Source: a virus. From it: DNA of 64,000 bases. The notes beneath the pieces are model-generated. The model was given only the letters and a program-made list of their open reading frames with translations, searched no databases and was not told the DNA's origin. Position numbers and translations under genes: made by a program. Shown here piece after piece: positions 5,152-61,933 of the stretch. Position 1 is the stretch's first letter; every line of letters starts with the position of its first letter. Location: IMG/VR virus record IMGVR_UViG_3300026136_000008; one strand, written 5' to 3'.

Positions 5152-5799
5152 TTAAGTGTACTGGTGTATGACCTGCACGAGTTCCTTATCCCAGTTGTCA
5201 CGATGTTCAATGAATACTTGCGGTTCTGCGTCATCCACAGAGATAATTGTTACTAATTGTGTGATAGGAATACCAGTTCTCTCTTCCCATGCAATAGCAT
5301 AAAAGCATTCTTGCATGAAATAAGAATGGATCCATTCCTTTTTCTTTGTCTTACGACTTGTCTTATAGTCTATAATAGACAGTTTACCATCGAATTCTGC
5401 TACACAGTCAACTCGACCTGCAACTCCTAAATGATCAGAATACAATGGCAATTCCTGTCCGTATACTGTACCTATTCTTGTGTCTAATATATTCTTAATT
5501 CTCTTAAAGTCATGCAAGATATTAGGCATTAAATCTTTGTCATAATCAGGTTTATTGTTCACATAATCTTCACAGACTTGGTGAACTGCTGTACCTCTAC
5601 CGGCAGCTTGCCTAGATATACGATTGGCTTCTTCTTCACCTACACGTTCTCTCCATTCCATAATAGCTTTCTTACTTAGGTTACCAAGTATAGTTGTTAT
5701 AGAAGGGTAATCACCATTCGGTGTTTGATATTTTCTACCACCTTTGTTTGTAGTAGTTAGGTCATTATAACCTAAATCAATGGGTTCATGTTTAAACAT
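5152..5799 (-). CDS. PD-(D/E)xK exonuclease (Cas4-like phage exonuclease)
   Basis: 'YPSITTIL', 'RGTAVH', 'AGRVDC...IIDYKTS', 'Q...YA' motifs. Confidence 0.85.
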   Translation of the reverse strand: MFKHEPIDLGYNDLTTTNKGGRKYQTPNGDYPSITTILGNLSKKAIMEWRERVGEEEANRISRQAAGRGTAVHQVCEDYVNNKPDYDKDLMPNILHDFKRIKNILDTRIGTVYGQELPLYSDHLGVAGRVDCVAEFDGKLSIIDYKTSRKTKKKEWIHSYFMQECFYAIAWEERTGIPITQLVTIISVDDAEPQVFIEHRDNWDKELVQVIHQYT

Positions 5800-6041
5800 T
5801 ATCTATCGTAGTCGGTTTGTTTTAAACCCATTTTTCCTGCATTTTTCTCAATCTCTTTCATACGATCTTTGAAACCATCGTCTGTCTGTGACCATAAGGA
5901 TTTAACACCAGATATTGTAGTAGGTACTCCAATTACAATAGAACAATTATTTTCTTTTTTATAATCATCTAATTCAGAAATTCTCATTTCCTTTTCCCAC
6001 TCAACTCCAGTTGTTTTATTTTTAAATCTATATGTCGGCAT
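5799..6041 (-). CDS. FmdB-like small regulatory protein
   Basis: 'MPTYRFKN..TG' start typical of T4-like FmdB-family proteins. Confidence 0.6.
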   Translation of the reverse strand: MPTYRFKNKTTGVEWEKEMRISELDDYKKENNCSIVIGVPTTISGVKSLWSQTDDGFKDRMKEIEKNAGKMGLKQTDYDR

Positions 6042-6167
6042 CTTCTCTATTCCTTAATGTAATACTCTTCCACCATCTATATAACCACATTACTTTAAGA
6101 GGATGATGCTCTGGATCAGGCAACTCATCTTTAAAATACTCCATGAATTGTCTTAGTTCGTCTTCGC

Positions 6168-7025
6168 TCAAAACTCTGATGCATTATCAATAAGCATTTT
6201 CATGCGGTGTTCTATTAAGTACGTGAGTATATTACCACGTGGTGGATATGTGTAATTCTCGTACATATTTATAGCTGCTTCACGAATACCATCTGGAGTA
6301 TTAGTCAAGTCAATCATTTGTACATTACGCATAAAGTTACGATAGACATTAGGCTTCATAATCATTTCAAGATCATCACGATTATCCCAGTATTTGTCTA
6401 TCTGTTTTTGTGTCATAGGTGTTTGTCTTGAACCTGTAGTAAATACATTATCGTGAGAATTAGCATTTGGCACACCATCACCAGAATCACCTTTAAGTAA
6501 GTGTTCGAATAAGTATTTACGAGGATTGTCATCTTTAACCATTTTATTAAATAGTGGTGACCATTGTTCTACCACATTACCGTATTGTTGTAACTGAATA
6601 AAGTCTTTATCAGCAGATATAATAACTACATCCTCACCACCAAAATCAGATTTATGTACAGTTAATGCACCAATAATATCATCAGCCTCTGCACTATCAA
6701 TCTTGATAACAGCATAAGGGAAGTTCTCACGTAAGTCATCGAGAGTAGACTCAATCAAATTAAAGATCTCTGTCCAATCGTGTTTATCTGATTCACGATT
6801 AGCTTTACGTGTAGCCTTATACTCCGGGAATACATCCTTACGCCAAGAGTAACTATCACATGCGATCACCATTTTACCATGATCTGCTTCTTTGTATTTG
6901 TTACGATATATCCTGAGGTTATTCAGAATGATGTGTTTAACTAAGTTTTCACTGAGTTCTTCGCCACGATTTAACTGACCCATGATGGACCCGATTGCTA
7001 AACCATTAAAGTCTACTAGTACCAT
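6168..7025 (-). CDS. rnh: RNase H / 5'-3' exonuclease (T4 Rnh)
   Basis: 'SWRK..FPEYKA.R', 'EADDII', 'SADKDF.QL', 'GDSGDGVPN' FEN-family motifs. Confidence 0.93.
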   Translation of the reverse strand: MVLVDFNGLAIGSIMGQLNRGEELSENLVKHIILNNLRIYRNKYKEADHGKMVIACDSYSWRKDVFPEYKATRKANRESDKHDWTEIFNLIESTLDDLRENFPYAVIKIDSAEADDIIGALTVHKSDFGGEDVVIISADKDFIQLQQYGNVVEQWSPLFNKMVKDDNPRKYLFEHLLKGDSGDGVPNANSHDNVFTTGSRQTPMTQKQIDKYWDNRDDLEMIMKPNVYRNFMRNVQMIDLTNTPDGIREAAINMYENYTYPPRGNILTYLIEHRMKMLIDNASEF

Positions 7026-7055
7026 AATTTACCTATATTCATTATTTAAAGTATA

Positions 7056-7508
7056 TTATAACATGTTTTTATTGCTTTGTACATAGTCTTCAGCTAAATT
7101 TTTTACTGATCCTACACCAATCTTTACAGCAATAATACCGTTATAATTATTCTCATTCAATAACACATTCTCATCGAATTGTATCTTTGCTTCCATATAG
7201 TTTGTATCACCTCGAGTCTTACACAAACAAATGATCTCACGTTTAAAGTTCTCTTTACCTAACTTTTCTATATCTTCGTTAAGCCTATTACTTGAACCCC
7301 AATAATCTTGCCAATCTGTTTCTTTTGAGACCTTACGTTTTCTTTTAAATCCCGCAAGAGGCTTGAGCTTCCTTACGGTTTTAAAATACTTTCTCCCAAT
7401 ATAGTCCATCCCATTAGTGAGATTAGTGATACGATAAACAAACCCGTACCAATCGCCAATGTCAGCAGTCGTAAATCTTTGTCCATTATAAGTCCAATCG
7501 TTCTTCAT
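7056..7508 (-). CDS. GIY-YIG family endonuclease (DenA/Seg-like)
   Basis: 'GFVYRITN....DYIGRK' and 'YWGSS'; likely start MKNDW at 7508. Confidence 0.75.
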   Translation of the reverse strand: MKNDWTYNGQRFTTADIGDWYGFVYRITNLTNGMDYIGRKYFKTVRKLKPLAGFKRKRKVSKETDWQDYWGSSNRLNEDIEKLGKENFKREIICLCKTRGDTNYMEAKIQFDENVLLNENNYNGIIAVKIGVGSVKNLAEDYVQSNKNML

Positions 7509-7680
7509 CGTTATCGTATTCTGATGCATCATATCCTCCACGTTGGGCCCATTCTAAATTAGCACCGCAAAAAGGGCAGTGCGTCACTTCCAATCCAAGA
7601 TCAATAGGATCATTGTCATAACCTAATTCTTCTTTAACAGTAACGTCAAAGTCTGGACTATTGCATTCATGGCATATCAT
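7486..7680 (-). CDS. Small zinc-ribbon protein
   Basis: CxxC...CPFCG. Confidence 0.65.
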   Translation of the reverse strand: MICHECNSPDFDVTVKEELGYDNDPIDLGLEVTHCPFCGANLEWAQRGGYDASEYDNDEERLDL

Positions 7681-7922
7681 AAACTTAATTCTCCCATAGA
7701 AACATGTGCCATCATCTTATCATATCCACCAACAAACTTGCCATCAATAAAGATTTGTGGAAATGATCTTGCTCCTGGAACTGCTTCCTGCAATTCTCTC
7801 ATTGACCATTCACCTGATTCAACATTTCTCTCTTCTACATTAATTCCTTTTTTATTTAAAAAGTCTTTTGCTTTTGTGCAATATACACAACCGTCTTTAC
7901 TCCATACTACTGCTATACTCAT
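7677..7922 (-). CDS. nrdC: Glutaredoxin
   Basis: CVYC active site, 'RSFPQIFIDGKFVGGY'; follows nrdB. Confidence 0.92.
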   Translation of the reverse strand: MSIAVVWSKDGCVYCTKAKDFLNKKGINVEERNVESGEWSMRELQEAVPGARSFPQIFIDGKFVGGYDKMMAHVSMGELSL

Positions 7923-8995
7923 AAGCTTAATCCCTCGAATGATTTTTTGTTAACATCATGTGTAACTCCGCCGAGCACATACGATGTAATTTCTGTTTCT
8001 TGTGGAGCAACTTGCACTGCTCCGCCACTGATCCACTTCTCTGTCCATGGAAGTGGGTTATGCTGATGTACTGAAAATGGTACATGATAGTTTAAAGATT
8101 TAATCCTCTTTGCACCAATCCAACGTACATATTCTTTCAAAAGGTCAGCGTTTAATCCAATCATTGAACCATTGCCAAATAGATAATCACACCATTCCTC
8201 TTCTTGTACTAATGCATCTTCAAATAGTTGATGAACTTGACCATCAGTTTCTTCTTTAATCTTCACATAGTCCTCATCTTCTTTTAAGAGAGTACGTATA
8301 ATATTTAACGAAGCTGCAAGATGTAAGTTCTCATCTCTTGCAATTAACTTAATAATCTTTGCATTACCTTCCATTTGCTTAAGCTCTGCGAAAGCCCATG
8401 AACATGCAAAGCTCACATAAAATCTTATACCTTCTAATATGTATATAGAAACCAAACATAGATATAATAGTTTTTTATGCTTATAGCTACCGTGAGGGCC
8501 CTTATAATTGATCAGGTTGTCATAATGTTCTGAGATTGCATTACCACACTCGGATATCGCTGGTATGGAAGTGATCTCATCAAATACCTTTGAGGGGTTA
8601 GGATACACGTTTCTGATCACGTGAGTATATGACCTTGAATGAATAGTCTCAAAAAATGCCCATGTCTCAATGAGTAACTCAAGTTCAGGATTACTTGCAA
8701 GTGGCAATAAAGCCAAGTCAGGTGATCTACCCTGTACCGAGTCTAATAAGATTTGTCTTTTGAGATTGGATGTAAATATGTGTTGCTCATTCTTTGTTAG
8801 CTTACTAAAATCAATCTTGTCTTTTGTGACATCGATCTCATCAGGGGTCCAATAAAATGATAACATCTTTTCATATAGTTTTTGTAAAGACGAGTATTTA
8901 ACTACGTCATATCTTGCAATGTCGACACCTTCATCAAAGAATAGATCTTTATCCATGTGCCCTTTTGTGTTTATTTTAAATACGCTTTTTTTCAT
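7919..8995 (-). CDS. nrdB: Class Ia ribonucleotide reductase beta subunit
   Basis: 'ETIHSRSYT', 'LEGIRFYVSFAC', 'RDENLH', 'VAPQETE'; likely start at 8995. Confidence 0.97.
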   Translation of the reverse strand: MKKSVFKINTKGHMDKDLFFDEGVDIARYDVVKYSSLQKLYEKMLSFYWTPDEIDVTKDKIDFSKLTKNEQHIFTSNLKRQILLDSVQGRSPDLALLPLASNPELELLIETWAFFETIHSRSYTHVIRNVYPNPSKVFDEITSIPAISECGNAISEHYDNLINYKGPHGSYKHKKLLYLCLVSIYILEGIRFYVSFACSWAFAELKQMEGNAKIIKLIARDENLHLAASLNIIRTLLKEDEDYVKIKEETDGQVHQLFEDALVQEEEWCDYLFGNGSMIGLNADLLKEYVRWIGAKRIKSLNYHVPFSVHQHNPLPWTEKWISGGAVQVAPQETEITSYVLGGVTHDVNKKSFEGLSL

Positions 8996-9516
8996 ACAGT
9001 ATACCAGCTTGGTGTAACCGTCTTCCATGCTGCGATATGTTGCTTATACTTCTTATAGTAATTTCTATAGGCAGTAATGCTATCACTATGCTTGACATCG
9101 TCAGGCATGGCTTGTGTCGGTTGTGTAAATGGACTATCACCACAATTACGCGGTGGGTTCTTTAAAACATCTTTGAGTTTTACGAATGACATATGATCTT
9201 TGCCATAGCGTATAACAAATTCATCGTGTAGATGGCACCACATCTCATAGAGGAATGCGTAATTATTTATACTTTGTCGAAGCCACACATTACTCGGATG
9301 ATTAACATGTGAAGCTTTATATAGTGCATCTTCCTCATGCCTCCAGCGTTTGATCTTTCTACCTATTTTATTTTTGTCATAATACTCTGTACCGTCAAGA
9401 ACACGGTGAGCTGTAGACATAAGCTGTGCGTATTCCACTAGCATCTTACTACAATGTTTGTCAAGGTGCATCTCTGCACTGGTCTTTGCATCTTTATCTA
9501 AATAAAATATATTCAT
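8992..9516 (-). CDS. Pyrimidine-dimer DNA glycosylase (DenV-like) family protein
   Basis: 'MNIFYLD...H.DKH..KM..E.AQLMST.H' and 'H.NHPS..W'. Confidence 0.75.
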   Translation of the reverse strand: MNIFYLDKDAKTSAEMHLDKHCSKMLVEYAQLMSTAHRVLDGTEYYDKNKIGRKIKRWRHEEDALYKASHVNHPSNVWLRQSINNYAFLYEMWCHLHDEFVIRYGKDHMSFVKLKDVLKNPPRNCGDSPFTQPTQAMPDDVKHSDSITAYRNYYKKYKQHIAAWKTVTPSWYTV

Positions 9517-9824
9517 ACTGTAAATGATTCTCCACAGCCACATCTGGCTTTTTCTTTAGGGTTATAAAATTCAAATCCTTCATTTAGACCTTCGTACTTA
9601 TAGTCTATCTCACATCCGTCAACATATGCAAGAGACTTAGGATCTACAACAACTGGAATACCATTTGGATAAAATGCATAGTCATCTGCTTCTATTTTAT
9701 CTGCAAATTCTAAATGGTAGGCTAGGCCTGAACAGCCTGTAGTTTTTACTAATACCCTAAGCTTTCGATCTTGTAGTGCTAAAGTCAATTTTTCAGTAGC
9801 TAACGGTGTTAAACTTATGCTCAT
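9513..9824 (-). CDS. iscA: A-type Fe-S carrier IscA
   Basis: 'TTGCSGLAY' and C-terminal 'CGCGESF'. Confidence 0.9.
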   Translation of the reverse strand: MSISLTPLATEKLTLALQDRKLRVLVKTTGCSGLAYHLEFADKIEADDYAFYPNGIPVVVDPKSLAYVDGCEIDYKYEGLNEGFEFYNPKEKARCGCGESFTV

Positions 9825-9844
9825 GGTATTATGTATATAAAAGA

Positions 9845-10115
9845 AAGACCGGAGTATTTGGTGATAAGGAACTCCGGAGAAAACCTCAACTAGCTATCAA
9901 GCAGCTAGTAAATAATCGTTCTGATTGCCGATTAAATTTGATTTTAAAGTCTTTCTTGACTGACGAGTCTCAAGCGGCTCTGCTACCTAATCGATGCCTT
10001 GTCTCCCCCATTAAATAATACTACCTGAATATTATTTGGTGGAGGAGGTGGGAATTGAACCCACGTCTTAAGTGCTCCTACTTTTACCTTTACGTCGTTA
10101 TCTAGCTCACTTCAT
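9845..10115 (-). ncRNA. ssrA: Circularly permuted two-piece tmRNA
   Basis: Acceptor piece ends ...GTGGGTTCAATTCCCAC-CTCCTCC-A-CCA (3' end 10037); 27-nt intervening hairpin; coding piece starts GGGGGAG at 10009, giving a 7-bp stem with G3:U70; tag GNQNDYLLAA* at 9929-9897. Outer boundaries approximate. Confidence 0.92.
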
Positions 10116-10131
10116 TATTGAATGAATGTTA

Positions 10132-10359
10132 TTAAGCATCATCATGAGTTAGTAGTTTCCACAAAACCGCTGCAGAAATCAAACCAACTAAACCAGCGTC
10201 TCCTAGCTGTTGGACTATACCAATGATCGTACCAATGACGTCGCCGCCAAGGAAAGGTACTGCTCCACCAAATACGATTTGCAATAAGATTGCTAAACCA
10301 ATTAGTGACATTGCAATAGCCGATGCAGCACTAACGCCGCTTGTGATTTTATCTAACAT
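10132..10359 (-). CDS. Small hydrophobic membrane protein
   Basis: Two hydrophobic Gly-rich helices; AGGAG SD. Confidence 0.75.
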   Translation of the reverse strand: MLDKITSGVSAASAIAMSLIGLAILLQIVFGGAVPFLGGDVIGTIIGIVQQLGDAGLVGLISAAVLWKLLTHDDA

Positions 10360-10691
10360 ATATTCTCCTATGTCGTTTTATAAAAAGTAGTTTAGCCTTG
10401 TCTCGAAGGGTTCTCATCCTTAAACTTTTCATTTAGCTCATCATTCAGTTCAAGGAAAATTGGGAAGATAGCCCAGGATAATAATCCTGTGGCCCCGAGG
10501 GTAAGAATAACCCCTAATAGTAAGTAATTTAATAAATCCATAATTATTTATACCAAACCTAATCTTGATAACATGGAACTATTATAACATAATTTATATA
10601 CTTTGTACATACTAAACGCAACTATTTTGCGGTATTAGTTAAAAAAGATAAAATTTTTCTACAAAAGCTAGATTCTGTAGAATATTTTTCT

Positions 10692-12995
10692 CTATAATAC
10701 ACAACTCTCACAATAGTCATCATACTCCTGTTGTGTCGCAAAATCCTCACGAGTCTTATCAAGCTCAGTTGATTCATCCTCGTTAGTTAGATCATTCGTA
10801 TTAAAGTAATATAATTGCTTACCTCCGTATTTGTAGAATGTGACAAGATCCTTCATCATTTCTGACATAGGAACTTTATTGTCTTCGTATTGAGCTGGAT
10901 TATAACTTGTATTTACAGATATACCCTGGTCAACATACTTTTGAATGATTGCCATGATCTTTAAGTAACCTTCGGGTCCTTGCTGATCCCATAGCAAATC
11001 GTATTTGTTTTTAAGATTGTGTATTTGTGGTACAACCTGTGCCATGACTCCGTCCTTCGATTGCTTATATGATACAAGTGCACGAGGTGGTTCTACACCA
11101 TTTGTAGCATTACCAATCTGGGCAGATGTTTCAGCTGGCATAATAGCCATTAATGTACTATTACGTATACCAGATTTTTGTAACTGTTTTCTTAATGATT
11201 GCCATGGCATTCTTTCTTTATGCTTGACTAGTTCGTCAACCTCTTTTTTATATGTGTCTATTGGCAAGATACCATGTCCGTATTTACTCTCTAAGACCTT
11301 ATAGCAAGTTCCCTTCTCTTTTGCAAGATCTGCACTTGCCTTAATAAGATAATATGACCATGCTTCTGCGTATTCATCAACTGTAGAAAGAGCATCATCA
11401 TTATATTTTAAACCTCTCTTTGCTAAGAAATATGCAAAGTTAATGATACCTACACCTAACGGTCTTCTGTTCATTGTTGATCTTTGCGCTGCAATAATAG
11501 GATAGTTTTGATAATCAAGTAAAGCATCAAGAGAACGTACAGCTAATTCACAATACTTTTCGAAATCTTTCGGATCATTAATTAATCCCCAATTAATTGC
11601 AGATAATGTACATAAACTGATTTCACCTTTTTCTGCATCATCATATGATTCTAAACCATGTGAAGGTAAATCAATTTCACAACACAAATTCGATTGGTGT
11701 ATCGGGGCCTGCTTCTCGATGAATGCACCATGTGTATTTGCATGATCTACATTTTGTAAATAGATTCGTCCTGTCTCTTTACGTTCTGTTAGGAATTGAG
11801 AGAATACTTCAAGAGCTGGTAAAGATTTCTTACGAATCTTACGGGACCTCTCATACTTTTCATATAACTCTTGGAATAATTCTTGATCCTCAAAGAAGGC
11901 ATCATATAATCCAGGTACATCATCAGGTGAGAAGAAAGTAATGTTCCCACCAGTTAATAATCTCTCATACATAAGCTTATTAAATTGGAAGGCATAATCC
12001 ATGTTACGTACACGAGTCTCTTCTGTACCACGGTTATTCTTTAATACAACAAGATCTTCAAACTCATAATGCCACACTGGCAAATAAACTGTTGCTGCAC
12101 CACCTCTTACTCCGCCTTGTGAACAAGACTTTACACTTGCTTGAAACAATTTAAGAAATGGTATAAGACCAGTATGTACAACCGAACCATCACCAATATG
12201 TGAACCTACGGCTCTGATCTTACCAGCATTAATACCTAAGCCAGCTTTCTTTGAAATATATTTAACGATTGATGTTGATGTTGCATTAATTGAGTCAAGA
12301 GAATCATTTGATTCTAATACAACACATGAACTGAATTGTCTTGTTGGAGTTCTCACACCAGCCATAATAGGTGTTGGTAATGAGATATAAAATTGTGATA
12401 TAGCATTATAGAAGTCTCTTACAAATTTCATACGTCTTCCATTATACCTACCGAATAATGTCATAGCAATCATAATATAAAGCACTTGAGGTGTTTCATA
12501 TATTGTGCCATCCGTTCGATTCTGTACAAGATACTTTGATCTCATTTGCTCCATACCAGCATATGTAAAGTCATCATCTCTTGAATGATCTATTATATGA
12601 TTATTAATATAATCTATTTCAGCTTCAGAATACATGTTTAATATGTCAGGATCATAGACTCCAGCATCAATATTATGTTCAATAATATCTTTGAGTGGCC
12701 ATGGATCCTTGTCACCATAAACAATTTTCTTGAGTTTGTAATTAATTAATCTTGCTGCAACAGTTTGATAGTTAGGTGTAGCTTCAGTAATAAGCTCTGC
12801 TGTTGATTTGATTAAGAGATCATGAATAGATGTCGAACGCATCTTATCATATAATTGAACATTGGCTCTCATCTCTATTTCAGAGACTGATACACCTACT
12901 AAGTCTTGACAAGCCCATTCAAGCACTCGGTGAATTTTATCAATGTTAAATTGCTCAGTTTCACCACTGCGCTTGGTCACGTTAATAGACGTCAT
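10692..12995 (-). CDS. nrdA: Class Ia ribonucleotide reductase alpha subunit
   Basis: N-terminal ATP cone (VTKRSG), 'QFSSC', 'QSNLCCEI', C-terminal CESC. Confidence 0.98.
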   Translation of the reverse strand: MTSINVTKRSGETEQFNIDKIHRVLEWACQDLVGVSVSEIEMRANVQLYDKMRSTSIHDLLIKSTAELITEATPNYQTVAARLINYKLKKIVYGDKDPWPLKDIIEHNIDAGVYDPDILNMYSEAEIDYINNHIIDHSRDDDFTYAGMEQMRSKYLVQNRTDGTIYETPQVLYIMIAMTLFGRYNGRRMKFVRDFYNAISQFYISLPTPIMAGVRTPTRQFSSCVVLESNDSLDSINATSTSIVKYISKKAGLGINAGKIRAVGSHIGDGSVVHTGLIPFLKLFQASVKSCSQGGVRGGAATVYLPVWHYEFEDLVVLKNNRGTEETRVRNMDYAFQFNKLMYERLLTGGNITFFSPDDVPGLYDAFFEDQELFQELYEKYERSRKIRKKSLPALEVFSQFLTERKETGRIYLQNVDHANTHGAFIEKQAPIHQSNLCCEIDLPSHGLESYDDAEKGEISLCTLSAINWGLINDPKDFEKYCELAVRSLDALLDYQNYPIIAAQRSTMNRRPLGVGIINFAYFLAKRGLKYNDDALSTVDEYAEAWSYYLIKASADLAKEKGTCYKVLESKYGHGILPIDTYKKEVDELVKHKERMPWQSLRKQLQKSGIRNSTLMAIMPAETSAQIGNATNGVEPPRALVSYKQSKDGVMAQVVPQIHNLKNKYDLLWDQQGPEGYLKIMAIIQKYVDQGISVNTSYNPAQYEDNKVPMSEMMKDLVTFYKYGGKQLYYFNTNDLTNEDESTELDKTREDFATQQEYDDYCESCVL

Positions 12996-33566: not shown

Positions 33567-33881
33567 TTAAAGCATTAATTCTGGTTGTGCTTGTATGATT
33601 TCGATTGTACCATCAATCATGTCTTTATATTTTTTCATTAAAGGTTCTTCAGGTTCAACAATAAACATAATGTGCTCTTCTTTAATAACGAGACCATCTG
33701 CTAATTCGCTATAACCTAAGTAAGGCATGAATCCGATTCTGCCAGTTGCGCCTGGCTCTGGAATTAAAAGTACTGGGTTAAATACCGTTGTTGTACTTTC
33801 ATTTTGATCTCCTATACCACATAATATTTCTTCGCCCGATGTTAATCGGATTAATCTATTAATCAATTTACTTTCACTCAT
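33567..33881 (-). CDS. Conserved T4-like hypothetical (Sm-like fold)
   Basis: 'LIRLTSGEEIL...GFMPY' family commonly between hsp20 and gp43. Confidence 0.7.
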   Translation of the reverse strand: MSESKLINRLIRLTSGEEILCGIGDQNESTTTVFNPVLLIPEPGATGRIGFMPYLGYSELADGLVIKEEHIMFIVEPEEPLMKKYKDMIDGTIEIIQAQPELML

Positions 33882-34267
33882 CTATGTTCCCTTGGTTGTT
33901 TATTAATATAGTCTGCAACTGCTGATTTAATAGCATCTTCTGCTAATACGCTACAGTGGATTTTTACTGGAGGCAGATTAAGCTCTTCAACAATTTCAGT
34001 ATTTTTAATTTCTTCTACTTGATGTATTGTTTTACCTTTCACCCATTCTGTTAATAATGAGCTTGAAGCAATTGCTGATCCGCAACCATATGTTTTAAAT
34101 TTTGCATCTGTGACAATACCTTCTTCTATACGTATTTGTAATTTCATAACATCGCCACAAGCAGGAGCACCTACCATACCAGTTCCCACATTTGGGTCTT
34201 TCATATCCATTTTACCCACATTGCGTGGATTATTGTAATGATCTAAAACTTTTTCTGAATATGCCAT
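33878..34267 (-). CDS. iscU: Fe-S cluster scaffold IscU
   Basis: 'MAYSEKVLDHY.NPRNVG', 'APACGD', 'YGCGSAIAS', 'LPPVKIHCS'. Confidence 0.96.
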   Translation of the reverse strand: MAYSEKVLDHYNNPRNVGKMDMKDPNVGTGMVGAPACGDVMKLQIRIEEGIVTDAKFKTYGCGSAIASSSLLTEWVKGKTIHQVEEIKNTEIVEELNLPPVKIHCSVLAEDAIKSAVADYINKQPREHR

Positions 34268-34281
34268 GTGCTCCTTAGTAT

Positions 34282-34740
34282 TTAGCCTAGTAACAACCTT
34301 TTGGCTGATTTCGGCAGGTCACCTAAATTGATAGTTTGAGGCTTGTCTTCTTCTGGAATATTGTTCTCCAAAATAACTACAAGCATTCCATCTACAATAT
34401 CGGCACCAACAACTTTTAGTGTGTCAGCCAAAGTAAATGAACGCTCAAACGCTCTTTGAGAAATACCGCGGTGAGCATACTCTCGTGTATCTGCAGCACC
34501 AGATTTCTTACCGCTAATTGTTAAAACACCTTTCTCAAGTGTTAAATCAATGTCTTCTTTCCTAAATCCTGCAACAGCGATTTCAATTAGAAAGTGACCA
34601 TCATCTCTTTTAATTACATTATACGGGGGATATCCTTGACCACGACCGGCCTCGAATGTAGTATTTTGTAATGTGTTAAAGAGTTGATCGAATCCCAAGA
34701 ATGTATCCCTTGGGAAGTTTGTAAATGCTAAGTTTGTCAT
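34282..34740 (-). CDS. Small heat-shock protein Hsp20 (IbpA-like)
   Basis: 'GFD', 'YPPYN', 'IAVAGF', 'HRGIS.R.F.R.F.L'. Confidence 0.93.
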   Translation of the reverse strand: MTNLAFTNFPRDTFLGFDQLFNTLQNTTFEAGRGQGYPPYNVIKRDDGHFLIEIAVAGFRKEDIDLTLEKGVLTISGKKSGAADTREYAHRGISQRAFERSFTLADTLKVVGADIVDGMLVVILENNIPEEDKPQTINLGDLPKSAKRLLLG

Positions 34741-44012: not shown

Positions 44013-46165
44013 GCAGCAACCGCATCAGTAATACGTGAAACTAATTGCTTGTTGCCTTTCTTAGTCTTCGCAAACTTCTTGAACTCACGTTTAAGATCAT
44101 TGATTGTGTCAGCTTTTTTAGGCTCAAACACATCAGAGTCAAACCTTGCTGAACGATTGATCTTAATAATGAAATAGTCATCGTAACCTTTAACATTTTT
44201 CCAAGCACCGAAACCAAGTTTTCTCCAAGATTTGATTACATCAGGAAAGTTTTTGTCTTCATCAACATTAACATAACCTTGTCCGAAAGTAGATGCATCA
44301 TACGCAAGGTGGAAACCCATAATAGTTGCACCAGTTATCTCTTTAAGTCTGTGAAGAACAGCCTCATAGATCTTACGACCACCCTGACCACGTATCAGTT
44401 TACCTTCAAAGTTAATCATTGTCTCACGTGAAGTCATAACAGTAGCAGATGAATCACGTTCAACATTTATTCCATCAGGATATCCGTCAGTTAGGAACAT
44501 AATGTTTGTGTTTTGTATTGCATGTTTACGTGTAAATGCCTTAGTCAATTTAGCTGCAAGCATTGCAGTTTGGATAAGAGGAGTTGAACCCATAGCATCA
44601 AGAGCATGAAGATAGTGACCAGATATATGGTAGCTAGTATGCTTGTTATTGTAGCTATGTGCCTTGGCAATAGCAAATGAAACATAAGCAGCTTCGTCAA
44701 AAGTTTTCTTATTCATCTTTGAAGAGAACATCTCAACAACTTTAGTACCGTCAGAATGCAACTCGCCAGCTTTATGTTCCATCTCACGAATACCCTTACC
44801 ACGTTCTCTCCAGTATGAAGTAGAAGTAAAGTTATATGCCTCGAAAGGAATATTAACTTGACGACAGAACATAGCAATAGTAATTGCTTGAGCAGTAACA
44901 TCTTCGATGATCTCACACATTGAACCAGAAAGATCAAGGAACATTACGATACCGTGTGACTTTGCTTGAGCTAACTGAGTAGTAGTCAAGAAAATATCTT
45001 CTGAAGTTTTGTAAGCATGAAGCTTTAAAGGATCAAGTTTACCAGACTTAGCAGTTGTTGCACGAGAATATTCAAATGCAGCTTTCTTACGTTCGAAGTC
45101 TTTCGCCATAAGATTTGCTTGTTGCTTGTAAACTAGTTTAGTCTCATTGTAATCTTCTCTACAAGCTACGTGAGTATAAGCGTTCTCATCACCATAACGA
45201 AGTTTTTCACCCATCAAATCTTCTACATACTCATCACGTAATGATTTAGCATAATCGTAAGAGTAAAGAATCTTTTCGATATTCTCATCGCTCATGCCGC
45301 TTGAGTATTCAGGCTGACCACTTCTTTCGTATTGACGCTCAGGAGATTTTTCAAGTAAATCTTCTTCGCGTTCTCTTTGAGTATCTTCAGTCCAAGTCTC
45401 ATGACCTTCAGGAGCTTTATCATCTGCAACTTCGGCACTAGTAGGCTCTTCGTTAGATTCATCTTCACCATCAGAATCACCATTACCTTCACCAGAGTCA
45501 TTGCTTTCCTCATCACCAGAGATAGGAGTTTCACCTTCGTCCTTAGGAGATTCACCCTCGTCAGCACTTGGCATACCCATTTCAATTTCATCTTTTTCTT
45601 CTTCTTGATCTTTTTGATCTTCGATAAAATCATAAAGCTTTTTGCAAACAGCAACAACGTCATCCCATGTTTCAACTTCCATAGCTTCTTTAACTAATGG
45701 AGATTCTTCATTAGAGAATTCAACTGGAACATAACCGCGGCCTTTTGAAGAAACATTAAGTCTGTCCATAAGTCCAGCCTTGTTGATATCTCTCTCGTTA
45801 GTGCCAAAAAGATCACTATCGAAAAGAACTTTATAACCATTCTTGAAACGACGAACGATACCAGGATATGTTTGCATGATCTTACGTTCAATGCGGATGT
45901 CTTCAACGATATTAAGATATGCACGTGGAATCTTACCAATCTTCTTTTCAGAATCGTGCCATCCATCAGCTGGAGTATAAAGAGCATGGCCAACTTCGTG
46001 ACCAACTAAAAGATCATAAACGTCTTTACCTTTGTCTTTCCAAAGAGGAAGACGAAGTACTCTATTCTCAACATCGAAACTAGCTGTAGAATAGTTGCCA
46101 TGTTGAACCGATAAGTTCTCTTTGGCAAGTAGTTTGGCTAGGTATTCTTGAGCTGATAAATTCAT
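44009..46165 (-). CDS. CobT-like protein: N-terminal HEXXH domain, acidic linker, vWA domain
   Basis: 'HEVGHAL', 'EDIRIE', MIDAS 'DLSGSM', 'LTDG'. Confidence 0.85.
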   Translation of the reverse strand: MNLSAQEYLAKLLAKENLSVQHGNYSTASFDVENRVLRLPLWKDKGKDVYDLLVGHEVGHALYTPADGWHDSEKKIGKIPRAYLNIVEDIRIERKIMQTYPGIVRRFKNGYKVLFDSDLFGTNERDINKAGLMDRLNVSSKGRGYVPVEFSNEESPLVKEAMEVETWDDVVAVCKKLYDFIEDQKDQEEEKDEIEMGMPSADEGESPKDEGETPISGDEESNDSGEGNGDSDGEDESNEEPTSAEVADDKAPEGHETWTEDTQREREEDLLEKSPERQYERSGQPEYSSGMSDENIEKILYSYDYAKSLRDEYVEDLMGEKLRYGDENAYTHVACREDYNETKLVYKQQANLMAKDFERKKAAFEYSRATTAKSGKLDPLKLHAYKTSEDIFLTTTQLAQAKSHGIVMFLDLSGSMCEIIEDVTAQAITIAMFCRQVNIPFEAYNFTSTSYWRERGKGIREMEHKAGELHSDGTKVVEMFSSKMNKKTFDEAAYVSFAIAKAHSYNNKHTSYHISGHYLHALDAMGSTPLIQTAMLAAKLTKAFTRKHAIQNTNIMFLTDGYPDGINVERDSSATVMTSRETMINFEGKLIRGQGGRKIYEAVLHRLKEITGATIMGFHLAYDASTFGQGYVNVDEDKNFPDVIKSWRKLGFGAWKNVKGYDDYFIIKINRSARFDSDVFEPKKADTINDLKREFKKFAKTKKGNKQLVSRITDAVAA

Positions 46166-46230
46166 AATATTTCCTTTTTTAATTCGTTATGTGTACATTA
46201 TATCACGTTTTGGACCAGTTGTACAACTAT

Positions 46231-46264
46231 TTACTGGTCCAGATGCGGCGAGTTGGTGTGCCAG
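46231..46264. repeat. 34-bp intergenic element, copy 2
   Basis: One mismatch to copy 1. Confidence 0.95.
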
Positions 46265-59819: not shown

Positions 59820-61021
59820 TTAAAATAATCTTTCATACCGCCTTCTCTATATGTATCTAATGTTAAACAATGCAGACCTCCATCCCAAAAATTCCTATGT
59901 CTAAATCTGCAGTATACTGCTTCAACTCCATGTTGCTTCAATTTGTCATGTACTTCTTTTTGATAGTTTAAAGATAGACTTACATTTTCATTTACCGCAA
60001 GCATATTTACTTCGAACAATGTTTCTTCTGCTTTTCCAACCCATTCACTACACCATCTATCTATAAAGCTTACAAGATCTGGATTCTCTTTAGCTTCTGG
60101 ATGCCACCATCTTCCATTAGTTATTCCTTTTTCTTTTTTCCAATCTACATTATCTTCCCATTTCATATAATTAGGATGTTCTATTCTTAATACATCCCAT
60201 CCAGGCAACGTATCTTTAAAGTGGCCTTTTCCTAACCACGGACCACAAACAACTAAGCCTGGTTTTGGTAAATTCATTGAACCATCATTATGACCACCAA
60301 TTGCTGTATTTGCACCTTCATATTGCGGGTATCTATCTAATAAAAAATCTGCAAGATTAGACCAATCTTCTTGGTCAATAATAAGCCTATTACCTACACG
60401 ATGTACGGCTGGTGCCCAGAATCCCCATGTGTGATTCCTCATCTTTTCGGTACGGCCAGTTGGTTTGAGAGGCCCTAAAGGTTCATTCCATTTTTCAGGA
60501 TCTAATAGCTTACCATTAGAATCTACTTTATATTTATTCTTACGATATTCATGTATAGCATCTTGAAATGGCAAATCAAGTACTGCAGGATTAAATATTC
60601 CACCGTTTACATCTACTTCATCATGCCACATATGATCACAATATACTATCTTATCACCAAGGGTTATAAAATCATCACGCGGTGTAAGACATGGTTTAGG
60701 TATACCTATGACACCTTCTCTTCTTTCATGTTCTACATATTCACCAAAACTTAAATAGTTACCACCTTTTGATCCGAGTGCACTAACACGATTAGGAGGC
60801 ATGCGTACTACATCAACACCCATATCCTCTAATGTCTTTTGAATATTATCTAAATCTTGATGTGTTTCAAATAATATTTTTTGCATGAGATCACGAAGCT
60901 TATGATCACGTATATCTTCAAAAAACTCTGGTGTGAATACATTACCAAGTACAACTTGTTTTAATGGATCCCATCCATTATATGCATTTGCCTTATTTAC
61001 TTTATATTGATTCGAATCCAT
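59816..61021 (-). CDS. Amidinotransferase (glycine/inosamine-phosphate type)
   Basis: 'WDPLKQV.LG', 'PRD', 'HNDG', 'VNML', 'GGLHCLT'. Confidence 0.85.
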   Translation of the reverse strand: MDSNQYKVNKANAYNGWDPLKQVVLGNVFTPEFFEDIRDHKLRDLMQKILFETHQDLDNIQKTLEDMGVDVVRMPPNRVSALGSKGGNYLSFGEYVEHERREGVIGIPKPCLTPRDDFITLGDKIVYCDHMWHDEVDVNGGIFNPAVLDLPFQDAIHEYRKNKYKVDSNGKLLDPEKWNEPLGPLKPTGRTEKMRNHTWGFWAPAVHRVGNRLIIDQEDWSNLADFLLDRYPQYEGANTAIGGHNDGSMNLPKPGLVVCGPWLGKGHFKDTLPGWDVLRIEHPNYMKWEDNVDWKKEKGITNGRWWHPEAKENPDLVSFIDRWCSEWVGKAEETLFEVNMLAVNENVSLSLNYQKEVHDKLKQHGVEAVYCRFRHRNFWDGGLHCLTLDTYREGGMKDYFK

Positions 61022-61472
61022 CTATTGTCCACCTGTCATCTATCCATGCTACTGGATTCATTACCTCAAATCCATCTATTTTTTGTTTATACTCATCAGC
61101 TCCGCCGATATACAAGTATTTATAACCTAATTCTTTATATATTGCACACTCGTTACGTAAGCTCTTTATACCTAAATGTAATTTAGGATTAGCATAGTCC
61201 CAAGCAAATTGATAACACTCAGCGTTATGTTCATCAAATTCAGCTATCATACTAAATGCTACAAGTACATCTCCATCATAATATCCTATTACCGTATTCT
61301 CTTTAAACTCAATATCAAACAAAGGCATAACACTATTGAATTTGTGATAATTACAGTACTTGTAATATATTTCTCTTAGCTGATTAGGGTCTGGATTAAG
61401 TAGTATTTCATGCGAACCTATTTTTTTATACTTTGTTTTTTCTAAATTAATTCTTGCATAGGAGTAACTCAT
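61002..61472 (-). CDS. ATE1/Bpt-like aminoacyl-tRNA transferase (GNAT C-terminal domain)
   Basis: 'YYDG..LVA', 'WDY....LHLG..S', 'G.KYLY.G....YK'. Confidence 0.6.
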   Translation of the reverse strand: MSYSYARINLEKTKYKKIGSHEILLNPDPNQLREIYYKYCNYHKFNSVMPLFDIEFKENTVIGYYDGDVLVAFSMIAEFDEHNAECYQFAWDYANPKLHLGIKSLRNECAIYKELGYKYLYIGGADEYKQKIDGFEVMNPVAWIDDRWTIDGFESI

Positions 61473-61933
61473 CCCACAAATCTCCAAGACACAACATCAT
61501 TTAAATTTTCTACTGACCAGTTAGCATAGTATCCTCTGTCTTTAAGGATATTGCTAGCCTCATTAATTGCACTTAGTCTCTGTACTAGTACTAATATACA
61601 TTTACCAAAATTCATCTTCGCGCCATTAATAATTTCTTCATCATGCGGATGATCTTCTAATGCAACAATATCCATAGCCATTGCGTTATGATTAAATTCT
61701 GTTACAATATCAGATAACTCTTTTGGTGTATAATTTTTAGTGGGGGTATAGAGACATACTACTTGATAATCATCATTAAAATCTGTACTGTAATCCTCAA
61801 GAGACTTGCGGATGTCATTAGTTTTAACATAATTGATTAATGCGTTTCGTGCATATGGACATGGTACAGTGCCAAGTTTTTCGTTATGAACAGATACGAA
61901 TTTATCTATCCATTTTTCGATTGATTTTTGCAT
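61469..61933 (-). CDS. DUF1415-like protein
   Basis: 'W...FV......PCPYA', 'DHP'. Confidence 0.55.
   Translation of the reverse strand: MQKSIEKWIDKFVSVHNEKLGTVPCPYARNALINYVKTNDIRKSLEDYSTDFNDDYQVVCLYTPTKNYTPKELSDIVTEFNHNAMAMDIVALEDHPHDEEIINGAKMNFGKCILVLVQRLSAINEASNILKDRGYYANWSVENLNDVVSWRFVG

Follow-up and report, generated by a model that had tools for sequence, protein, structure and literature searches.

A beta-like, circularly permuted two-piece tmRNA gene in an uncultured marine T4-like myovirus

The DNA analysed here, referred to throughout as the window, is a stretch of 64,000 nucleotides from a virus (IMG/VR record IMGVR_UViG_3300026136_000008). Its GC content is about 35%, and the long ORFs all lie on the minus strand. 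The encoded proteins include T4 RNase H, NrdA, NrdB, a gp41-type helicase, and gp43 DNA polymerase, along with gp59, RegA, a clamp-loader subunit, UvsY, gp19, gp23, and a SegE-like GIY-YIG homing endonuclease, the gene of which (7056-7541, minus strand; PF19835, E = 1.6e-39) is found between those of RNase H and nrdB. The gp43 protein shares 50% identity with that of Phage C48C1, 44-45% with those of marine cyanomyoviruses, and 44% with that of OM43 phage Melnitz. Because of the T4-type gene set and these gp43 identities, the carrier is, as judged from its genes, an uncultured marine T4-like myovirus of a Kyanoviridae-like kind.

The locus of interest lies between nrdA and an IscA-like gene, in the following order on the minus strand:

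10692-12995, minus strand: nrdA
10581-10609, minus strand: sigma-70-like promoter match (TGTACA, 17 nt, TATAAT, with TG ahead of the second hexamer), a match to the consensus only
10392-10541, minus strand: 49-aa hydrophobic ORF without a family match, between nrdA and the tmRNA
10132-10359, minus strand: 75-aa ORF, glycine-rich, hydrophobic, and membrane-like, ending 34 nt upstream of the tmRNA
10097-9840, minus strand: permuted tmRNA gene
9513-9824, minus strand: IscA-like Fe-S assembly protein gene (Pfam PF01521, E = 1.3e-15), the downstream neighbour, outside the RNA

The 75-aa ORF had no match in Pfam or PHROG. Its last codons (HDDA, stop), which stand beside the tmRNA, are conserved in nearly all aligned relatives, and the ORF and the tmRNA probably form part of one transcription unit. 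A hairpin after nrdA precedes the promoter match, and both are kept in the nearest relative (promoter site in L001). As read from the sequence, the unit would extend from the promoter match at 10609-10581 to the hairpin and T-run behind the tmRNA. Directly upstream of the tmRNA no convincing promoter was found. The TGCTTAA near the tmRNA was discarded as a promoter because it simply belongs to the final codons (HDDA, stop) of the ORF before it, and an exact TATAAATA at 10552-10545 was not counted since it stands only 3 nt ahead of an ATG. Between the stop codon of the 75-aa ORF and the tmRNA there is a 6-bp hairpin (UUCAUU-CAAU-AAUGAA; 10111-10126, minus strand), which most relatives keep with a variable loop and which could act as a signal for processing the acceptor piece at its 5' end. 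With regard to the downstream neighbour, the same phage also encodes IscU (33878-34267, minus strand; NifU_N, E = 4e-52) and Hsp20 (34282-34740). Along with the IscA-like protein, these look like an Fe-S assembly and chaperone auxiliary set, which perhaps serves the NrdB, radical SAM, and 2OG-Fe enzymes of the phage itself.

ARAGORN, run on the whole 64-kb window, returned a single gene, a permuted tmRNA at 9806-10129 on the minus strand with the tag GNQNDYLLAA. The Rfam model tmRNA_permuted (RF04321) aligned over its full length (model positions 1-213) to 10097-9897 with 86.9 bits (E = 2.7e-15), the curated gathering score being 47 bits. The agreement of ARAGORN and RF04321 on a permuted tmRNA far exceeds chance, and along with a reading of the sequence they place the gene at 10097-9840. 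A sequence-only reading had proposed a phage-encoded circularly permuted tmRNA at this locus, and the proposal is borne out by both programs as well as by the helix covariation and tag selection described below. The parts of the gene are as follows:

10037-10097, minus strand: acceptor piece, delimited by the RF04321 alignment, the sequence, and pair counts; the 5' end is putative
within 10037-10097, minus strand: 5' strands of the inter-piece helices (GACG, UAAAAG, GG, GCAC-U-UAA)
10064-10048, minus strand: T-arm GTGGG / TTCAATT / CCCAC, read from the sequence
10047-10041, minus strand: 3' acceptor strand CTCCTCC (RNA: CUCCUCC), with A73 next
10039-10037, minus strand: encoded CCA, with the acceptor piece ending at 10037
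10036-10010, minus strand: intervening spacer of 27 nt (sequence and fold)
9839-10009, minus strand: coding piece, delimited by the sequence, the RF04321 and beta_tmRNA alignments, and pair counts; the 3' end is putative
10009-10003, minus strand: 5' acceptor strand GGGGGAG, read from the sequence
within the coding piece, minus strand: D-loop-like GGCATCGA after the 5' acceptor strand (DNA reading)
within 9839-10009, minus strand: D-loop-like GGCAUCGA
within 9839-10009, minus strand: 3' strands of the inter-piece helices and a small hairpin AGUC/GACU
9929-9894, minus strand: tag frame GGC AAT CAG AAC GAT TAT TTA CTA GCT GCT, then TGA TAG (ARAGORN)
9909-9889, minus strand: stop-codon hairpin ACUAGCU / AGCUAGU, with the stops in and beside the loop (pair counts)
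9849-9888, minus strand: H-type pseudoknot of the 3' part (pair counts, helices 8 and 9)
9888-9884 with 9869-9865, minus strand: pseudoknot stem S1, UGAGG with CCUUA
9877-9871 with 9855-9849, minus strand: pseudoknot stem S2, CCGGAGU with ACUCCGG

The order of the gene is swapped, with the CCA end at 10037 lying upstream of G1 at 10009 on the minus strand and the spacer in between. The tRNA-like domain is found at 10064-10037 plus 10009-10003, its T-loop being of the GTTCRANYC type. The acceptor stem, GGGGGAG/CUCCUCC, reads as 7 bp with G3:U70 and the discriminator A73, and the tag frame gives (A)GNQNDYLLAA. Much of this had been named beforehand: the sequence-only reading had pointed to the T-arm, the CCA at 10037, a 27-nt self-complementary spacer, GGGGGAG at 10009, a 7-bp acceptor stem with G3:U70, the tag with its LAA end inside an ACTAGCT/AGCTAGT hairpin, and a CCGGAGT/ACTCCGG hairpin followed by a T-run. 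On re-reading, every checkable point was right, the frame being at 9929-9894, the two hairpins at 9909-9889 and 9877-9849, and the T-run reaching 9839. What had been missed is that S1 and S2 are interleaved and so make up an H-type pseudoknot. S2 with the U-run at 9848-9839 also resembles an intrinsic terminator. On the 5' side of the tag frame, where the first pseudoknot is usual, just a 4-bp hairpin is seen, with one compensatory pair.

The gene is not confined to the window. A 26-mer from the T-arm and acceptor region is present in at least 26 uncultured viral contigs (IMG/VR), and 26 of 26 contigs pass RF04321 with 65-87 bits. The nearest virus record (G001) carries the same gene in nearly identical form. 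The base pairing was assessed on an alignment of 19 distinct copies, gathered with the 26-mer from the tRNA-like domain, on which the structure was written out by hand and pairs were counted per cell. Standard pairs occupy 96.4% of the cells, as against 34-49% when the partners are slid by 1-3 columns. Five pairs, spread over three helices, have changed on both sides. Three pairs of the stop-codon hairpin (helix 7) show two-sided change, the small hairpin has one such change (U-A to C-G in 8 copies), and in pseudoknot S1 there are 3 copies with a compensatory replacement of U-A by C-G; S2 hardly varies. Six copies pair the inter-piece helix of UAAAAG with CUUGAG better than the window copy does, in which this helix is weak. 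Nothing varies in the tRNA-like domain, and all its pairs are kept in 19/19 copies. As the copies were fished with a 26-mer from that very domain, its invariance is uninformative and carries no covariation signal.

The tag is likewise conserved. It starts with Gly in all 19 copies (GGC or GGA; GGC here, the Gly start having been noted in the sequence-only reading) and ends with Y(L/A)LAA in 19/19. In its last two positions all four Ala codons are in use and the changes are synonymous only, and the tag is 9 or 10 codons long with the indels in frame. Hence, judging from the synonymous changes at the LAA end and the in-frame indels, the tag peptide itself appears to be under selection. This matters for the view that the RNA is a decoy, the tRNA-like domain of which soaks up host SmpB or competes with the host tmRNA and thereby stops host ribosome rescue. 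Such a role would suit a phage in which no smpB was found, where the RNA must compete for host SmpB, and it has a model in mycobacteriophage DS6A, where a molecule consisting of the tRNA-like domain only has been described as a tmRNA inhibitor (PMC4131195, PMC11915505). Unlike DS6A, however, the gene here has kept a full tag frame, and selection for its translation is indicated by the synonymous-only changes in LAA, the in-frame indels, and the covariation in the stop-codon hairpin and the pseudoknot. A decoy role is quite improbable because the tag frame is selected. It is even harder to credit that the gene is a functionless remnant of a dead host ssrA, left by faulty excision or as the relic of an attachment site. 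It is true that tmRNA genes are common integration sites and that fragments of them occur in prophages (PMC9004378). But the present gene is complete, its carrier has a T4-like genome of the lytic type, and at least 26 contigs conserve it, with compensatory changes and with selection on the tag. In two relatives it was confirmed to have the same neighbours, nrdA and iscA.

The 27-nt spacer contains a 9-bp hairpin that begins directly at the CCA, leaving 4 unpaired nt before G1, and it is presumed to be thrown away in maturation. Among nine distinct short-spacer copies the spacer sequence varies, and a hairpin of 9-10 bp directly after the CCA is kept in all; the hairpin is maintained through covariation. 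The length of the spacer differs among siblings. It is 133 nt instead of 27 in five contigs (L004, 271-403; L011, L017, L018, and L026), whereas L024 and L025 have a different spacer of 63 nt, and L015 and L016 have one of 38 nt. The 133-nt spacers hold an ATG-started ORF of 50 codons with two CxxC pairs, zinc-ribbon-like (MKEIIWHFSCK.C..WW...FCPHCGKPY.YDGG...), which extends about 27 nt past the 5' end of the coding piece and in which, for most pairs of copies, synonymous differences equal or outnumber the non-synonymous ones. Similarly, the spacer of the Melnitz tmRNA contains an unannotated ATG-started ORF of 54 codons (MZ577097, about 46096-46257; L167, 1584-1745) reading MFKWLSKTRLVV...VYDGG..., and this ORF crosses the GGGGG 5' end of the coding piece as well.

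The subtype of the gene was judged with the three lineage models of Rfam, each scored singly on G001, the gene of which nearly matches that of the window. The curated cut-offs are 50 bits for alpha_tmRNA (RF01849), 84 for beta_tmRNA (RF01850), and 70 for cyano_tmRNA (RF01851). The alpha model scored 38.3 bits over model positions 84-170, which is the tRNA-like part only, and the cyano model 30.0 bits in a local match to model positions 53-123 only, both below their cut-offs. The beta model aligned full-length (model positions 1-331) with 70.0 bits on G001 and 69.9 bits on the window, again below its cut-off, while the sibling copy L020 reached 88.9 bits and passed. Because only beta_tmRNA aligns the whole gene and the alpha and cyano models reach no further than the tRNA-like part, the gene is classed from its sequence as beta-like. 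It is called divergent because the window copy misses the beta cut-off while L020 passes it. ARAGORN and the alpha, beta, and cyano models had been put forward as a check by the sequence-only reading, and they gave a permuted call with only the beta model aligning full-length.

Comparison with cellular genes points the same way. By blastn against fetched tmRNA loci of Rhodocyclaceae and Gallionellaceae, identity was 62-66% over 160-235 nt out of 259, T-arm and tag included; the matches to Azonexus, Dechloromonas, and Sterolibacterium, likewise of 62-66% identity, lie at query positions 33-246. In 185,579 species genomes, the permuted order combined with the phage-like pattern GGCWTCGA matches almost only Rhodocyclaceae and Gallionellaceae. 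Cellular beta-type genes (RF01850) share the gene order, have ARAGORN lengths of 320-335 nt (324 nt in the phage gene), and start their tag at position 198-211 (201 in the phage gene). Their tags have 10 codons, ANDE(R/Q/T/N)(F/Y)A(L/I/M)AA, and end in AA like the phage tag. They also differ from the phage gene. Their resume codon is Ala (consensus GCC) as against Gly GGC; the distance from tag stop to terminal hairpin is about 41 nt in the beta model and 3 nt in the phage gene, which is about 38 nt fewer; and the acceptor stem GGGGGAG/CUCCUCC of the phage gene was found in no cellular permuted gene searched.

The sequence-only reading had raised an independent viral permutation, in which the swapped order arose in phages from a one-piece tmRNA. 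The acceptor stem in permuted order was found in no cellular genome searched, the window copy falls under the beta_tmRNA cut-off, and none of the cellular beta-type tags seen shares the Gly start; all three would fit such an origin. It is nevertheless very improbable and is not supported by the comparison: the beta_tmRNA alignment runs end to end and a sibling copy passes the cut-off, the 62-66% identity to beta-lineage genes spans T-arm through tag, the genes agree in length (about 324 nt) and in where the tag starts (about position 201), the GGCWTCGA pattern in permuted order is almost confined to Rhodocyclaceae and Gallionellaceae, and a single base separates the Gly codon GGC from GCC, the beta consensus. 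Rather, the gene most likely descends from the betaproteobacterial two-piece lineage and would then have diverged and been compacted inside phages. Taken as a whole, there is a high probability that the locus holds a working two-piece ssrA gene of an uncultured marine T4-like myovirus, most likely drawn from that lineage. It may further be supposed that the gene belongs to a distinct phage-resident beta-type lineage, long evolving in marine T4-like phages and marked by an acceptor stem of its own, a 3' domain that has been compacted, and a YLLAA tag with a Gly start, with the spacer possibly serving as a slot for small genes; this extension is offered as a speculation that is rather unlikely to hold in full.

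No donor was identified among the cellular genomes. The acceptor stem in permuted order had 0 matches among 185,579 species-representative genomes, and the 26-mer met 5 unrelated loci in the same set, 0 of them permuted. A looser permuted pattern gave, among the matches listed, mostly chance ones behind one-piece tmRNAs. A class-wide search that started from Legionella found beta_tmRNA above its cut-off in 0 of 151 genomes, a count that is uninformative as the taxa were unlabelled. The only near-identical match labelled cellular is L312 (FZLS01000149.1, 5175 bp), binned in the MAG 'Rhodobacteraceae bacterium Water_Bin34', which has 91% identity in the tmRNA match and the tag GNQSDYLLAA. It was rejected as a cellular donor: this 5.2-kb contig is collinear with the window at 5745-10723, with 80-89% identity across that range, and is probably a mis-binned phage fragment. 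As a hint to the host it is very weak at most. We take OM43 to be the obvious marine member of the beta two-piece lineage. As to OM43 and the Methylophilaceae as donor or host, no Methylophilaceae record was present among the matches to the patterns used. Buchholz et al. placed OM43 on the two-piece gammaproteobacterial (formerly beta) branch (PMC9004378). Should the host turn out not to be a member of the beta two-piece lineage, the gene would be the sign of a host shift across classes, mirroring that of Melnitz.

Two-piece tmRNAs are not new to marine phages. Buchholz et al. (2022) described one in the Methylophilales (OM43) phage Melnitz and in pelagimyophage contigs related to it, and found two-piece tmRNAs in 53 of 18,146 phage genomes, 50 of the 53 being marine or aquatic, as well as permuted tmRNAs in 17 of 47 contigs of the Melnitz cluster (PMC9004378). 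In the tmRNA database of 2025, phages account for 79 unique tmRNA sequences (PMC11915505). Since two-piece tmRNAs of marine T4-like phages were published in 2022 (PMC9004378), the gene is of a known kind, and the novelty implied by the sequence-only reading was overstated. The Melnitz gene (MZ577097, 45984-46436) is similar in several ways: it is a permuted ssrA in a marine T4-like myovirus of streamlined heterotrophs, it passes RF04321 (113 bits), and neither phage has a reported smpB of its own. The two differ in that the Melnitz tmRNA was reported as alpha-like and the present one is beta-like. The tag is ANDNYVPVDYALAA in Melnitz and GNQNDYLLAA here, the spacer is 127 nt as against 27 nt, and the Melnitz gene lies next to the gene for the gp33 (late-transcription) coactivator, whereas the present one lies between nrdA and iscA. 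A glutamine riboswitch was reported in the 3' part of the Melnitz gene, while the window has no riboswitch family at the Rfam threshold, and the gp43 proteins of the two phages are only 44% identical. Other phages also carry a rescue RNA. For example, the tmRNAs of the mycobacteriophage Bxz1 group and Bacillus phage G are one-piece and follow the standard order (PMC4131195), and huge phages carry tmRNA plus SmpB, often bringing the latter along (PMC7162821), whereas the gene here is permuted and no SmpB was found. Among 50,697 GenBank phage records the 601-nt region had no blastn match, and Phage C48C1, which comes nearest of the cultured phages in gp43 (50%), has no permuted tmRNA. What is new is a beta-like, compact, Gly-start subtype that is absent from every cultured phage searched.

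The sequence-only reading had noted that no smpB lies in the window, and none was found among 30 window ORFs of SmpB-like size (110-215 aa). Five related viral records, including two of 71 and 94 kb, likewise yielded none. As no phage smpB was found, reliance on host factors (SmpB, AlaRS, and RNase P) is presumed. Beyond the gene, its architecture, its helix conservation, and the selection on its tag, which come from the present comparison, the course of events proposed here follows steps established for tmRNA and for the two-piece tmRNA of Caulobacter (cited in PMC9004378 and PMC11915505). A single precursor would be transcribed, probably starting at the candidate promoter that precedes the two small ORFs for membrane proteins and ending at the hairpin and U-run at 9877-9839. 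Host RNase P would cleave ahead of G10009, the host would trim the first piece from its 3' side until the encoded CCA is exposed, and the spacer of 27 nt with its hairpin would be lost. The two RNAs would be held together by four helices in addition to the 7-bp acceptor stem, charged with alanine by host AlaRS through G3:U70 and A73, and delivered by host SmpB and EF-Tu to ribosomes stalled on broken mRNAs. Translation would then resume at GGC, and the added (A)GNQNDYLLAA would direct the product to ClpXP-type proteolysis through its LAA end. The phage may benefit in that ribosomes stay free during the degradation of host mRNA, as Buchholz et al. proposed for Melnitz (PMC9004378). With regard to protein degradation signals, a 161-aa ORF elsewhere in the window (61002-61487, minus strand) has a weak, sub-threshold match to the C-terminal domain of arginyl-tRNA-protein transferase (PF04377, E = 1.9e-4). 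If the match is true, this would be a second phage gene touching tRNA-dependent degradation signals.

The finding opens no new mechanism and answers no long-standing question. Rather, beside the alpha-like and cyanobacterial-like two-piece tmRNAs already published for marine phages it places a second, beta-like family, which is common in ocean viromes. The finding lends weight to the idea that marine T4-like phages bring ribosome rescue with them as a resource, and for uncultured phages the RNA subtype may serve as a clue to the lineage of the host.
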